From NCBI GenBank assembly GCA_049303905.1, contig JBAQNP010000017.1:4-64003 (forward strand): a DNA stretch of 64,000 nt, in the 5' to 3' direction. Under the pieces are notes generated by a model. The model was not told where the DNA came from. It saw nothing but the letters and a program-made list of their open reading frames with translations, and searched no databases. This document shows positions 14,443-17,144 of the stretch, one piece after another. This stretch comes from Candidatus Moraniibacteriota bacterium. Its GTDB lineage: Bacteria > Patescibacteriota > Minisyncoccia > Moranbacterales > UBA2206. How positions within the stretch are numbered: position 1 is the first letter of the stretch; each line of letters begins with the position of its first letter. The position numbers were made by a program, and so were the translations under genes.

Positions 14443-15147
14443 ATGATTTCACCACTTCCTTCATATTTTTCGCTTCGATATGAAAGCGAAGTAGAAAAAG
14501 AATACATAGTCGGATTAGTTGGTCAGTTTGAAAATGCAAAAATTACAGATTCTTACCATCTAGCTCTTTTCGCGTATCACTTATTATTTATGAGTTTTGT
14601 TTACCAGACTGTTCATAAAATAAAAAAATGGATGCCGGATAGATTTTGCGATGCACTCATCCAATCATCGGCAGAAAAGAAAAAAGAATATTTTGAAGCA
14701 AGATCGCCTTGGGTTTTTTCTGAAATACGCGAAAGTTCTGTTTTTGAATTTTTAAATTTGCTACAAATTTGTAACGGAGAAGTTAAAAAGTGTAAAAATA
14801 TAATCAAACAAAGAAACAAGGGATTTGGTCATGCCACAGGTGTTTTGGTTTCGGAAGAAGAATTTGAAAGAAAAGTAAATGAGTATGATCAGATCGCACA
14901 AGAAATTCACAAACTGACACACGCAGAACTTGCAAAAATATTTGATGAATATATCGCAGATATTGATCAGAATGAAGAAGTAATAAAAGATGATATCGAG
15001 TTAAATTTAATTATTCCAAATAGATTAAGTGACCAAGATTTGGAAAAGTTAGCAGCGGAATGTCTAATAAAACCTACTCTGCAAAAAGAAAAAATATCAA
15101 AAATAATTCAGGATGATTTTGGAGTTTTTGTGGAAATTATTAAATAG
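14443..15147 (+). CDS. Hypothetical protein
   Basis: Intact ORF convergent with RT gene (8-nt overlap of ends); no recognisable domain. Confidence 0.45.
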   Translation: MISPLPSYFSLRYESEVEKEYIVGLVGQFENAKITDSYHLALFAYHLLFMSFVYQTVHKIKKWMPDRFCDALIQSSAEKKKEYFEARSPWVFSEIRESSVFEFLNLLQICNGEVKKCKNIIKQRNKGFGHATGVLVSEEEFERKVNEYDQIAQEIHKLTHAELAKIFDEYIADIDQNEEVIKDDIELNLIIPNRLSDQDLEKLAAECLIKPTLQKEKISKIIQDDFGVFVEIIK

Positions 15148-16117
15148 CTTTTGAAATATTCTCAATATAATTTTTATAAATATTCATAGATTTATATCTT
15201 CTTTTGAGCGATAATTTTTCTTTTTGCGAAGTATCTTTTTTTAATTTTTCTTTTACCTCATCTCTTTTCGATTTTGCTTTTTTGCCAATGCCTAATTTAT
15301 TTCGAAATAAATTAATTCCCACATATTCTATTCCATCTTCATGTGAAATTATTTCGGTTTTTTTCTCATTGATTTTTAGTTTTTGATTCGCGTCGGTATT
15401 TAGTAAGAGTTTTTTTATTTCAATTTTTAGCATATTCATTTTTTCTTCCGTCACTCTACTTGCTGTTATTCCAATATCATCAACATAAATAGAAATCCTT
15501 GGGTCGTGGCCTTTTAATTTTTTTTGAACAAGGCGGTCTAATTTTATAAAAATATCAAGATTGCACCAAACTGCTAATCTTTGGGAGGTTGCAAATCCTC
15601 TGGCTATGGATCTTTCTTTTGCACCACTGTTTTTTTGTCCAAGAGGAACACAGCAAAGCTGGGCAAGTATTTTCGAAGCCCGGATGTCGCAACTGCACTT
15701 GTATTTAAAAAAATCAAAAACTCTTGCGTCGCTTATTTGTTCAAAGAATCGCTCGAGATCTATCTTGAGCAATGTGCGTTTTCTTTTTGAGCCAAGCAAA
15801 TTTTGTGCGGCTTTAGCATGGTTTGTATTTTTCACTCCTCCAAAAATAAATTTTGGCAGAATCTTGTCATGAGGAGCAATTACTAGCGTGTTTATTTTTT
15901 GCAGAAGCAACCCTAATTTTGTAAATTTTGCATTACGAATGTATTTTTGTTTTTTTGGTTCTGAATGTTTGCTGTCCTTCCAGTATTTATCAAAATTTTC
16001 AAGCACTTCATTTATTAATAAGAGAGCATCTTCCTTTGAAAAATTTTTATGGCTTATGTGTTTTGCCAGTTCATTTTTGCTTCTAATGAAAAGTTTTGGA
16101 TATCTAAGATTTTGCAT
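15140..16117 (-). CDS. Reverse transcriptase (compact, stand-alone RT domain; motif-B region DGR-like)
   Basis: RT motifs A LLKIDLERFF, B' RGFATSQRLAVWCNL (GxxxSQ), C SIYVDDIG (YxDD), D KINEKKTEI, E EYVGINL; 325 aa with no fused effector domain. Confidence 0.85.
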   Translation of the reverse strand: MQNLRYPKLFIRSKNELAKHISHKNFSKEDALLLINEVLENFDKYWKDSKHSEPKKQKYIRNAKFTKLGLLLQKINTLVIAPHDKILPKFIFGGVKNTNHAKAAQNLLGSKRKRTLLKIDLERFFEQISDARVFDFFKYKCSCDIRASKILAQLCCVPLGQKNSGAKERSIARGFATSQRLAVWCNLDIFIKLDRLVQKKLKGHDPRISIYVDDIGITASRVTEEKMNMLKIEIKKLLLNTDANQKLKINEKKTEIISHEDGIEYVGINLFRNKLGIGKKAKSKRDEVKEKLKKDTSQKEKLSLKRRYKSMNIYKNYIENISKAI

Positions 16118-16433
16118 TTTTATTGAGATTTTTTGCGCGGTCTTTTATCAAGAGTGTTTGCATTTTCTCGCCCCAATTAATAAAGGATCTTTCTATTTTA
16201 GAATTTGAACTAATGGGATTTTCTTTGTTTATAAACAAAAAGGGGGTTATTGATGAAGGGTGAACATTCATTCTATCGGCTAGCTTCAAAAGGAAGTTTT
16301 TTGACACTTCTTTTTGTCCTGTTTCAATCATTGTAATAAGCACAGCAGAAACACCGATTGCATCGGCAAAATCAGCTTGGGTCAGCCCAGCTTCGTCCCT
16401 TATTTTTTTAATTAATTCTGAAAATGTATACAT
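16104..16433 (-). CDS. XRE-family HTH transcriptional regulator, translationally coupled to RT
   Basis: LTQADFADAIGVSAVLITMIETGQKEVS Cro/C1-type HTH; 14-nt overlap with RT start. Confidence 0.75.
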   Translation of the reverse strand: MYTFSELIKKIRDEAGLTQADFADAIGVSAVLITMIETGQKEVSKNFLLKLADRMNVHPSSITPFLFINKENPISSNSKIERSFINWGEKMQTLLIKDRAKNLNKNAKS

Positions 16434-17095
16434 AAACGACTAAATGGCAGCTACTTGAGAAGATCTAAAATGATACGAAGTATTACAGCGATAAGCCGTA
16501 ATATCCGTAACCATTTTTTCATAACAAGTAACTGCCACTTTATACGGAAGGCACAATTCAGTAATGCACTTGGTTTTTTTTATCATATGATTTCCGTTAA
16601 AAGACAGTTAATTAAAAAATTTTTTATTTAACGGACACAACCAAATCCTCACGGTTATCAAGTTCGATCAAAAACCTTCCGGTAACAACCTATAACCGTG
16701 TGGCTATGGTAGGTCCTGCGCAAGAAAATATTATATCAATATGATACAATATACTTGTCTTAACTCGTGCAAATGAATATATAGTGTTATATCTGATATA
16801 AGAGCATGTGCATGGTGAGTTCCACTCTAAAATTAAAGCAAGAATGGCCAGATATTTTCCAAAAGGAAATCATCTACAATATTCGAATAGATAATCGTTT
16901 TTTACGTGAATTGATTTTTTAAATAACTAGCTGTCTATATTCTATTATATACGAAACGTATAGATTGTGTCAAGAGTATTTTTTTTCGGAAATTTTTTAA
17001 TCGCTTTATTACATCTTTGGCTTGAGAGTGATTTGTTTTCGAGGTATAATAGAAAAAAGAGGTCAACTACCTTTTTTAGATTTAGGAAATAATTC
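16434..17095. other. ORF-free structured region upstream of the HTH-RT pair (candidate ncRNA / RT template)
   Basis: ~650 nt without ORF >=60 aa; several stems: GGCAGCTACTTG/CAAGTAACTGCC, CCGTTAAA/TTTAACGG, CACGGTTAT/ATAACCGTG. Confidence 0.3.
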
Positions 17096-17120
17096 TTGTT
17101 AAGTAATATGTTAAGTAACA
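17096..17120 (+). promoter_or_regulatory. Operator/promoter-associated motif TTGTTAAGTAATATGTTAAGTAACA (copy 2)
   Basis: Near-identical to 8449-8473; TATAAT at 17133-17138, 7 nt before ATG 17145. Confidence 0.45.
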
Positions 17121-17144
17121 TTTTTTTAGTAGTATAATTAAGTT

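Follow-up and report, generated by a model that had tools for sequence, protein, structure and literature searches.

Two preprints describe the control of the toxin in Type VI retrons, the least understood type of retron. In Retron-Vpa2 of Vibrio parahaemolyticus, a hybrid RNA (hyRNA) is composed of the msr-msd region and the open reading frame (ORF) of a translationally repressed small protein (SP), and the reverse transcriptase (RT), a helix-turn-helix (HTH) protein and the hyRNA form a complex. The HTH protein represses reverse transcription, and phage recombination proteins cause multicopy single-stranded DNA (msDNA) to accumulate, resulting in derepression of SP translation (Zhang et al., bioRxiv 10.1101/2025.10.22.683967). 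In Retron-Sen3, single-stranded DNA (ssDNA) and the SP are made constitutively, the HTH protein neutralises the SP, and inhibition of RecBCD is the trigger (Garcia-Rodriguez et al., bioRxiv 10.64898/2026.04.27.721009). Toxin control is translational in the former account and post-translational in the latter. A 64,000-nt stretch of the genome of a Candidatus Moraniibacteriota bacterium (contig JBAQNP010000017.1, positions 4 to 64,003; hereafter the window) carries a small ORF, an HTH gene and an RT gene in this order on its minus strand, at about 15140–16973. Family assignment by hidden Markov model (HMM), synteny, RNA covariation and the coding signature of a nested 23-residue reading frame (frame B) are the basis for reading this locus as a divergent Type VI retron, located in a defence island and belonging to a lineage widespread in the candidate phyla radiation (CPR, Patescibacteria), and we put the probability of this reading at roughly 0.8. 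As predicted from its sequence, the system would serve in anti-phage defence and would not be a mutagenic diversity-generating retroelement (DGR). Earlier work has described Type VI retrons, among them one from a CPR bacterium; what is new here is a miniaturised, nested toxin ORF, a leader ORF that is only kept open, covarying RNA links and a candidate operator. A literature search turned up no report of retron RNA from the CPR or of ORFs that overlap within a retron.

The locus resembles Retron-Vpa2 in the order of structured RNA with small toxin ORF, HTH gene and RT gene, in a contiguous leader of about 470–505 nt that joins an msr-msd-like domain to the toxin ORF, in a toxin start lying within stems, in inverted repeats that tie the RNA arms together and in a toxin with a hydrophobic C-terminal helix (bioRxiv 10.1101/2025.10.22.683967). 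It differs from Retron-Vpa2 in that the RT is distant (95.7 bits on the RT_VI profile) and in that the putative toxin has about 23 residues as compared with 55. Moreover, the putative toxin ORF of the window is nested in the +1 frame within a second ORF abutting the HTH start, a helix between a loop and a strand directly 5′ of the toxin stem joins its noncoding RNA (ncRNA) arm to its toxin arm, and its CPR host lacks Shine–Dalgarno motifs. With Retron-Sen3 (cl2075) the locus shares the SP–HTH–RT module, an ncRNA that is bounded by inverted repeats and contains a stem-loop whose centre is not conserved, an inverted repeat flanking the SP ORF, inverted repeats tying the ncRNA to the SP region, an amphipathic C-terminal SP helix with a hydrophobic moment of about 0.6 and an HTH protein expected to be the antitoxin (bioRxiv 10.64898/2026.04.27.721009). 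In contrast to the window, Retron-Sen3 belongs to a proteobacterial lineage and has an SP of 79 residues that comprises two or three helices. A second ORF overlapping that of the SP has not been reported for Retron-Sen3, whose flanking repeat has no significant covariation, whereas the corresponding stem of the window covaries strongly.

Class assignment of the reverse transcriptase and its HTH partner

The RT gene (15140–16117, minus strand, as are all features of the locus unless stated otherwise) encodes a retron-type enzyme of 325 residues that carries the catalytic YVDD within SIYVDDIG as well as RGFATSQRLAVWCNL. Pfam detects RVT_1 over residues 71–270 (2.7e-12) and no extra domain, which bears out a preliminary description of this stretch, made from the letters, as far as the length, the catalytic motif and the absence of a fused domain are concerned. 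Among the PADLOC profiles, RT_VI comes first (7.1e-28, 95.7 bits, profile positions 5–272 of 279), followed by RT_II-A (55.4 bits, 1e-15), RT_IV (52 bits) and the models of unknown-group (UG) or defence-associated RTs (DRTs) at about 32 bits. Alignment of the family profile with the Type VI RT of a Yersinia phage by hhalign gives a probability of 98.6% over 262 columns with 27% identity, and all of 30 aligned relatives keep the catalytic residues D120, D213 and D214. NCBIfam gives only sub-threshold matches to retron and group II intron RTs, and in a profile search of the PDB a group II maturase and the retron RTs Ec86, Ec67 and Ec83 come up as weak hits. A group II intron RT or maturase was also considered and rejected, since TIGR04416 reaches 35 bits against a cut-off of 300 and Rfam found no group II intron.

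The HTH gene (16104–16433) encodes an XRE/Cro-C1 protein of 109 residues, which matches HTH_3 in Pfam (1.3e-13) and for which HTH_VI is the first PADLOC model (1.7e-13, 48.7 bits, the next being 30.7 bits). Its 3′ end overlaps the RT start by 14 nt (16104–16117), in agreement with the preliminary description. The protein is predicted to act as antitoxin and repressor. The HTH gene precedes the RT gene in every locus with enough upstream sequence except L052 (Saccharibacteria, sheep ileum), in which there is no HTH gene and two overlapping small ORFs stand directly before the RT.

A tblastn search of phage records has identified loci in Yersinia phage vB_YenM_56.17 (L067) and Shewanella phage MuM16-1 (L068), whose RTs score 346 and 320 bits on RT_VI and whose HTH proteins score 120 bits on HTH_VI. 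Both loci have the order small ORF, HTH gene and RT gene with overlapping HTH and RT genes, as in the window; their RTs are 27% identical to that of the window, including the N-terminal I-x-SKN-x-LA, and the C-termini of their SPs (e.g. KKWALLTFKWSVRIAVWIYKLFTD) resemble MKKWLRILRLIAVILRIILD. They differ from the window in being phage-borne and in having single-frame SPs of 48–54 residues with a basic N-terminal half, which end 31–46 nt before the HTH gene. Since RT_VI and HTH_VI are the best models, the gene order is that of the phage loci and the hhalign match is strong, the locus is filed as a divergent Type VI retron. The traits of Type VI retrons (classification of Mestre et al. 2020) are found here as follows: the RT falls with the Type VI clade on RT_VI profile and hhalign scores rather than in a tree; a Cro/C1-type HTH gene with HTH_VI as its best model lies directly upstream of the RT gene and overlaps it; the SP that ends in a hydrophobic helix takes a variant form ahead of the HTH gene, namely a 23-residue amphipathic peptide; and a structured ncRNA, bounded by inverted repeats and continuing into the SP ORF, is recognisable from the sequence.

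The preliminary description had left the choice between a DGR, a defence RT and a Type VI-like retron, and of these the Type VI-like retron is upheld and the DGR is not. In a DGR, the RT would copy an upstream template repeat, with mutagenesis at adenines, into the variable repeat of a target gene, and a compact RT whose motif B reads G-F-A-T-S-Q in the window genome agrees with such an element. However, the invariant T-S of motif B is followed, among the 30 relatives, mostly by S, in several cases by P and in a few by T, and Q is confined to the window and its closest relative. The consensus of the family is ATS-S, and the Yersinia phage Type VI RT has S-M at this position. The SQ pointed out in the preliminary description is thus present as letters, and it is a lineage-specific substitution in a family with S, P, Q or T rather than a DGR-like signature. 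The best HMM is that of retron Type VI, and there is no DGR RT among the matches in PDB, NCBIfam and PADLOC. No direct or inverted repeat of at least 40 nt links the region of 13–19 kb to the rest of the window, except a paralogous ORF pair: blastn of 13–19 kb against the window aligns only 17578–17918 on the plus strand with 24722–25110 on the minus strand (73–81% identity), and the mixed mismatch spectrum is not that of a template and variable repeat. The self-alignment proposed in the preliminary description accordingly yields no adenine-specific repeat pair in the 64-kb window, either by repeat search or by blastn. Neither an Avd-like gene nor a lectin-fold target was found beside the RT in Pfam-level tests of the neighbours, and the upstream region is conserved as an RNA structure with a peptide ORF. 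The DGR reading is refuted as far as the window allows, and we give it next to no chance.

A covarying leader RNA upstream of the HTH gene

A sigma70-type promoter (16944–16973), with the −35 box TTGACA at 16973–16968, an 18-nt spacer and the −10 box TATAAT at 16949–16944, matches the consensus at 12 of 12 box positions, and the promoter block is kept across 44 loci with a column identity of 0.64–0.76. Transcription probably starts near 16937. The spacer contains a palindrome, TATACGTTTCGTATA (TATAC-N5-GTATA, 16948–16962), that overlaps the −10 box and occurs once in the window, against 0.01 expected by chance. With at most one mismatch, TATAC-N5-GTATA is found in 45 of 50 loci as compared with 14 of 945 background chunks of 300 nt, and a TTGAC box lies just upstream of it in 41 of those 45 loci. 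The palindrome is probably the operator of the HTH protein. In L001, L003, L019, L024, L037, L043 and L064, a perfect DnaA-box-like nonamer, TGTGGATAA, is present 5–15 nt upstream of the −35 box, and its reverse complement is upstream of the retron promoter in L027; the window has no such nonamer. A divergent 93-residue ORF (17145–17426) shows no conservation with the neighbour in L058 and is placed outside the system.

The leader transcript would be about 505 nt long (16434–16937) and hyRNA-like, with an ncRNA domain followed by a small-ORF arm, and contiguous with the HTH and RT genes. There is no ORF of at least 60 residues on either strand between 16434 and about 17080. The ORF-free stretch of the preliminary description therefore holds at that threshold and fails below it, because an ORF of 48 residues (frame A, 16440–16586) and the nested 23-residue ORF (frame B, 16451–16522) are conserved in the family. 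When the 700 nt upstream of the HTH ATG are aligned for 44 loci, no conservation is seen beyond about −570, and between the promoter and the HTH ATG conservation is interrupted only by a few variable patches. The preliminary description had proposed an RNA-fold analysis of this region, and its expectation of structure is confirmed for the leader: an RNA of 507 nt, starting at 16937 and reaching the HTH ATG, has a predicted free energy of −139.4 kcal/mol as compared with −99.9 ± 5.8 for shuffled sequences (z = −6.8), and the structure covaries. An Rfam search of 14000–18500 gives nothing above noise.

RNAalifold, applied to nine close relatives, and pair counts for 21 loci support the structure. 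The ncRNA as a whole has 88 compensatory cells, as compared with 46 ± 5 in shuffles and 33–60 in slid controls. The 5′ inverted repeat a1 at the transcript start (16914–16936) pairs with a2 (16602–16620), which closes the ncRNA domain 15 nt upstream of the frame-A ATG. The a1/a2 helix comprises 17–20 bp in the minimum-free-energy fold, and relatives have the compensatory variants GGACGG/CCGTCC, GATTGGC/GCCAGTC and GGCTAGTT/AACTAGCC. Within the domain, SL1 (UAGAUGAUUUCC...GGAAAAUAUCUG, 16849–16876) is paired in 81% of cells with compensatory changes at 7 of 11 pairs, and SL2 (CCAUUCU...AGAGUGG, 16822–16847) is paired in 87% of cells with compensatory changes at 6 of 7 pairs. The following segment (16721–16821) is the least conserved part of the leader and contains two variable hairpins, V1 (16821–16762) and V2 (16757–16721). 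In each relative it folds into hairpins with the closing stems AACUC/GAGUU and CAAG/CUUG, the interiors of which vary in sequence and length. Because they are analogous to SL3 of Retron-Sen3, V1 and V2 are candidates for the msd, the template of reverse transcription. A branched conserved domain (16633–16716) includes a UACCGGA loop, invariant in close relatives, and a 9-bp stem, CACGGUUAU/AUAACCGUG (helix 7; CACGGTTAT/ATAACCGTG as DNA), which is paired in 76% of cells with compensatory changes at 6 of 9 pairs.

All three stem-loops listed in the preliminary description are present, namely a 12-bp stem, CACGGTTAT/ATAACCGTG and CCGTTAAA/TTTAACGG, and the first two covary across relatives. The third, an 8-bp stem, is kept only in the closest relatives, with a single G:C to A:T compensation, and competes with a1/a2; it was not retained as an element of the structure. 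Of the two roles imagined for the upstream region, that of a retron-like ncRNA is supported and that of a template repeat is not. A coding gene between 16434 and 17095 had also been regarded as incompatible with an ncRNA. This opposition does not hold, since the structured RNA and the toxin ORF of Type VI retrons share one hybrid transcript (bioRxiv 10.1101/2025.10.22.683967), and structured RNA and a small ORF coexist at this locus. As a separate observation, a distal segment, CGATTATC (16890–16897), directly repeats the 5′ arm of the CACGGTTAT stem; it can pair with 16653–16660 in competition with 16693–16701, and it covaries with the same 3′ arm, GATAACCG (UA in 12 and CG in 5 cases at one pair). 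This suggests that the CGATTATC/GATAACCG pairing and the CACGGTTAT stem represent two alternative conformations.

The small-ORF arm is enclosed by a stem that brackets frame B. Its 5′ arm (16525–16547) ends 2 nt before the frame-B ATG, and its 3′ arm (16437–16457) covers the stops of both frames and extends to 3 nt before the HTH ATG. The 12-bp stem of the preliminary description is the core of this helix of 15–21 bp, of which 16 bp are formed by 16540–16525 with 16457–16442. In an alignment of 50 loci built without reference to structure, 81.7% of the cells of 15 pairs are paired as compared with 72.1 ± 0.8% in shuffles, and there are 74 compensatory cells as compared with 23 ± 5 in shuffles and 9–18 in slid controls, the changes being distributed over 12 of the 15 pairs.

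A long-range helix of 8 bp connects this arm to the ncRNA. The loop CGGAAGGU of the branched domain (16674–16681) pairs with GCCUUCCG (16545–16552), immediately 5′ of the stem around the putative toxin ORF. The helix is absent from the free-energy fold prediction and was found by complementarity and covariation. In 30 loci with the register fixed by independent anchors, 7.97 of 9 positions pair on average, as compared with 6.60 ± 0.17 when loops are swapped among loci, and the maximum in 2000 such permutations is 7.33. The partners covary as CGGAGGGU/GCCCUCCG, CGGAUGCC/GGCAUCCG, CGGGAGAC/GUCUCCCG and CGGAACGCU/AGCGUUCCG, with further variants, and many pair types occur at positions 5–8.

This RNA bears on another explanation, in which the RT belongs to a different defence-associated group (DRT/UG or Abi-type) and is accompanied by an unrelated XRE regulator and an ordinary regulated 5′ untranslated region, with no msDNA. 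Weak PADLOC matches to RT_UG17 and RT_UG26 (about 1e-8), an RT_VI score that is modest in comparison with bona fide Type VI RTs, and a CPR Type VI retron reported to yield no ssDNA that could be detected in E. coli (Khan et al. 2025, as cited in bioRxiv 10.64898/2026.04.27.721009) are in line with it. However, RT_VI is ahead of the UG models by about 60 bits, the paired HTH protein is independently best on HTH_VI, the architecture is small ORF–HTH–RT, and the RT has no fused domain. Moreover, the leader has the hallmarks of a retron, namely terminal inverted repeats, conserved stem-loops and a variable hairpin, as well as an ORF-bracketing stem like those of Retron-Vpa2 and Retron-Sen3. We consider a DRT/UG or Abi-type system improbable and prefer the Type VI assignment.

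Two overlapping small reading frames

Frame B, the 23-residue ORF MKKWLRILRLIAVILRIILDLLK (16451–16522), lies in the +1 frame of frame A. For 32 pairs of loci with at least 70% nucleotide identity, the ratio of non-synonymous to synonymous change (pN/pS) over the last 18 frame-B codons is 0.33 for frame B, as compared with 1.99 for frame A and 1.00 for the remaining frame, so that the frame-B peptide is the element under purifying selection. The column entropies at the three codon positions of frame B are 1.47, 0.95 and 1.70, the third position being the most variable, and all five differences in the overlap between the window and an 85%-identical relative are synonymous in frame B and non-synonymous in frame A. 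The frame-B ATG is conserved, and an in-frame stop is present upstream of it within 12 codons in 22 of 44 loci and within 5 codons in 18. The encoded peptides, such as MKWLRCLRIILQIIRILKDLLR and MIVRILRIIRIFIWIIRILLDIIA, have 18–31 residues (median 23), contain 48% Ile plus Leu, carry a mean net charge of +3.3 and have a mean helical hydrophobic moment of 0.57 as compared with 0.26 for shuffles. They resemble the C-terminal halves of the phage Type VI SPs (...KKWALLTFKWSVRIAVWIYKLFTDSEFDI and ...LWNIVKVLVRAGLCVYKLLNFFFGDNDA), and the most divergent locus, L053 of Peribacteria, has a single-frame SP ORF of 56 residues in which a polar N-terminus is followed by a helix of this kind. None of the small peptides matches a Pfam or PADLOC profile, and the frame-B peptide is outside the described SP clusters. 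These features of the sequence lead to the proposal that frame B encodes an SP-type toxin reduced to its amphipathic helix. A programmed +1 frameshift fusing frames A and B was considered and set aside, since relatives do not keep the A-run at the junction and read AAGAAA there, and it is also disfavoured because frame B has its own conserved ATG, often 1–5 codons past an in-frame stop.

Frame A (16440–16586) is an ATG ORF of 48 residues that ends 6 nt before the HTH ATG. In relatives it has 46–59 residues, ends 4–16 nt before the HTH ATG and is annotated by gene callers. Another reading of the locus is a Type VI retron whose effector is the frame-A product, the frame-B peptide being a by-product of RNA constraints, and in its favour the frame-A ATG is conserved, the frame is open in 49 of 50 loci and called as a gene in relatives, its size is that of known SPs (48–55 residues), and frame B is interrupted in L008 and in L061 and L062. 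However, frame A has a pN/pS of 1.99 where it overlaps frame B and of 0.80 in its remaining, N-terminal half, and it varies least at the third codon position, contrary to what is expected of a coding sequence. The product is hydrophilic and has no amphipathic helix (mean hydropathy −0.32, hydrophobic moment 0.13). Its sole conserved motif, L-x-P-Y, is accounted for by the covariation of the long-range helix. Finally, L040 has no frame A and keeps the frame-B peptide, and L053 has the helix within its single-frame SP. A frame-A effector is unlikely on this evidence, and the frame-B peptide is retained as the proposed toxin; the gene callers would then annotate the wrong frame as the small protein.

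Frame A is stop-free across the overlap in 44 of 44 loci, as compared with 12.5 expected under synonymous recoding of frame B with the codon usage of each locus, and the third frame, as a control, is open in none of the 44 loci as compared with 0.8 expected. These counts indicate that frame A is selected to stay open, with its peptide sequence unconstrained, and it is probably a translated leader or coupling ORF. A Shine–Dalgarno-like motif precedes only 3 of the 36 window ORFs of at least 200 residues, and leaders are A/U-rich; the window genome seems to rely on Shine–Dalgarno-independent initiation. Because so few long ORFs have such a motif, arguments from Shine–Dalgarno sequences for sequestration or coupling were dropped.

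Peptides of Type I toxin–antitoxin systems (Hok, TisB and Fst-like) are likewise hydrophobic or amphipathic, have about 20–35 residues and have a start occluded by mRNA structure. Hok depends on the overlapping leader ORF mok. Unlike these systems, the window has no evident antisense RNA, control is predicted to be exerted by the HTH protein and the retron RT and ncRNA, and there is no match to a sequence family. The likeness may tell how the system works, by analogy, and does not imply family membership.

Several points weigh against the Type VI reading and the proposed toxin. The RT_VI score of 95.7 bits is far from the 320–346 bits of proteobacterial and phage Type VI RTs, and strict membership of the Type VI clade is probable from the profiles rather than proven. 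The CPR Type VI retron that was tested, from Ca. Levybacteria, is the one cited above as giving no ssDNA in E. coli, and neither the priming guanosine nor the msd can be assigned from the window sequence. The 23-residue peptide is shorter than any characterised SP (48–79 residues); frame B has an internal stop in L008 and a TGG-to-TAG change at codon 4 in L061 and L062, and three loci have no frame-B ATG. A hairpin inside the peptide coding sequence, predicted in the window and its close relatives, is not upheld family-wide, where 51.5% of cells are paired as compared with 48% in shuffles. Finally, the loci compared share ancestry, and so the counts given here are not counts of independent events.

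Proposed control, genomic setting and meaning

The mechanism that we propose follows the logic of Retron-Vpa2 and Retron-Sen3 by analogy. A single promoter would drive the hyRNA-like leader of about 505 nt and then the HTH and RT genes, which overlap. Two-thirds of the leader, on its 5′ side, would be the retron ncRNA closed by a1/a2, from which the RT would make msDNA, and the 3′ third would carry the frame-B effector, whose start region and stop would be held in the covarying stem and tethered to the ncRNA loop by the 8-bp long-range helix. Ribosomes translating frame A would open the stem and terminate beside the HTH start, probably delivering ribosomes to the HTH and RT genes. In an uninfected cell, the peptide would be silenced or neutralised by the RNA structure (stem and long-range helix), by the HTH protein or by both. 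Phage infection would shift the level of RT-made ssDNA or lift the block by the HTH protein, and the peptide would then be made or freed, resulting in cell arrest, that is, abortive infection. Since the RNA tightly encloses the start region of the putative toxin, a translational component of control is favoured. In its full form, a 23-residue out-of-frame toxin would be combined with frame-A translation that melts the stem, feeds the HTH and RT genes by termination–reinitiation and gates the toxin start, and the ncRNA helix would hold the switch. This full scheme is tentative, and we give it less than even odds. If it is true, reverse transcription and toxin translation would be coupled through a three-layer device of RNA and translation that is undescribed for any retron.

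At least 384 RT relatives are found in the database at E ≤ 1e-5, and an NCBI protein under the name Candidatus Moraniibacteriota is 100% identical to the RT of the window. An alignment-based scan of GTDB species representatives gives 57 loci, nearly all in Patescibacteria, including Saccharibacteria, Paceibacterota, Wolfebacteria, Uhrbacteria, Gottesmanbacteria, Collierbacteria, Peribacteria and others, and seven closer relatives were added by exact-protein look-up. The leader is conserved in about 50 mostly CPR loci. A single-protein scan of GTDB genomes found no relatives. A scan of IMG/VR found no relatives of the RT family either, and a phage-borne origin is therefore unsupported.

The retron is at the edge of a defence island. 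On the minus strand, a TOTE conflict-system archaeo-eukaryotic primase (AEP) fused to a helicase is encoded at 4959–7163 (PF22548, 2.9e-88). On the plus strand follow a RhuM-family gene (7274–8314), HsdR of a type I restriction–modification system (8643–11237), a type I HsdM/HsdS fusion (11242–13656), an AbiJ-like protein (13660–14421; Abi_C 6.5e-24, PADLOC AbiJ 1.5e-22) and a 234-residue ORF with no family match (14443–15147), whose 3′ end overlaps the RT stop by 8 nt in convergent orientation. Several relatives of the locus also adjoin restriction–modification genes. For a role of the window locus in phage defence through a toxic SP neutralised by the HTH protein, this island is the support, and it is contextual. 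Just upstream of the retron promoter, an ORF of 114 residues (17596–17940) encodes a coiled coil and has a diverged, inverted paralogue about 7 kb away. Elsewhere in the window, a 46-nt direct repeat with 85% identity (AAATTATTAGTATATTAGTA..., 20814–20859 and 21487–21532) lies upstream of the adjacent L7/L12 and L10 genes and may be a duplicated promoter or leader element, and a 97-nt direct repeat with 77% identity (32905–33001 and 33267–33363, spacing 362 nt) is probably an internal duplication within a gene.

With at least 384 proteins and 57 GTDB species, mostly of the CPR (Patescibacteria), this lineage represents a compact natural variant of Type VI retrons. It offers a putative toxin cut down to an amphipathic helix, a covarying stem and ncRNA link resolved to single base pairs, an ORF that is only kept open and a candidate operator, and together these traits allow frame-specific and compensatory mutants to be used as direct tests of the coupling between reverse transcription and toxin release. 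With its predicted role in defence, the case documents retron-type immunity in ultrasmall episymbiotic bacteria.

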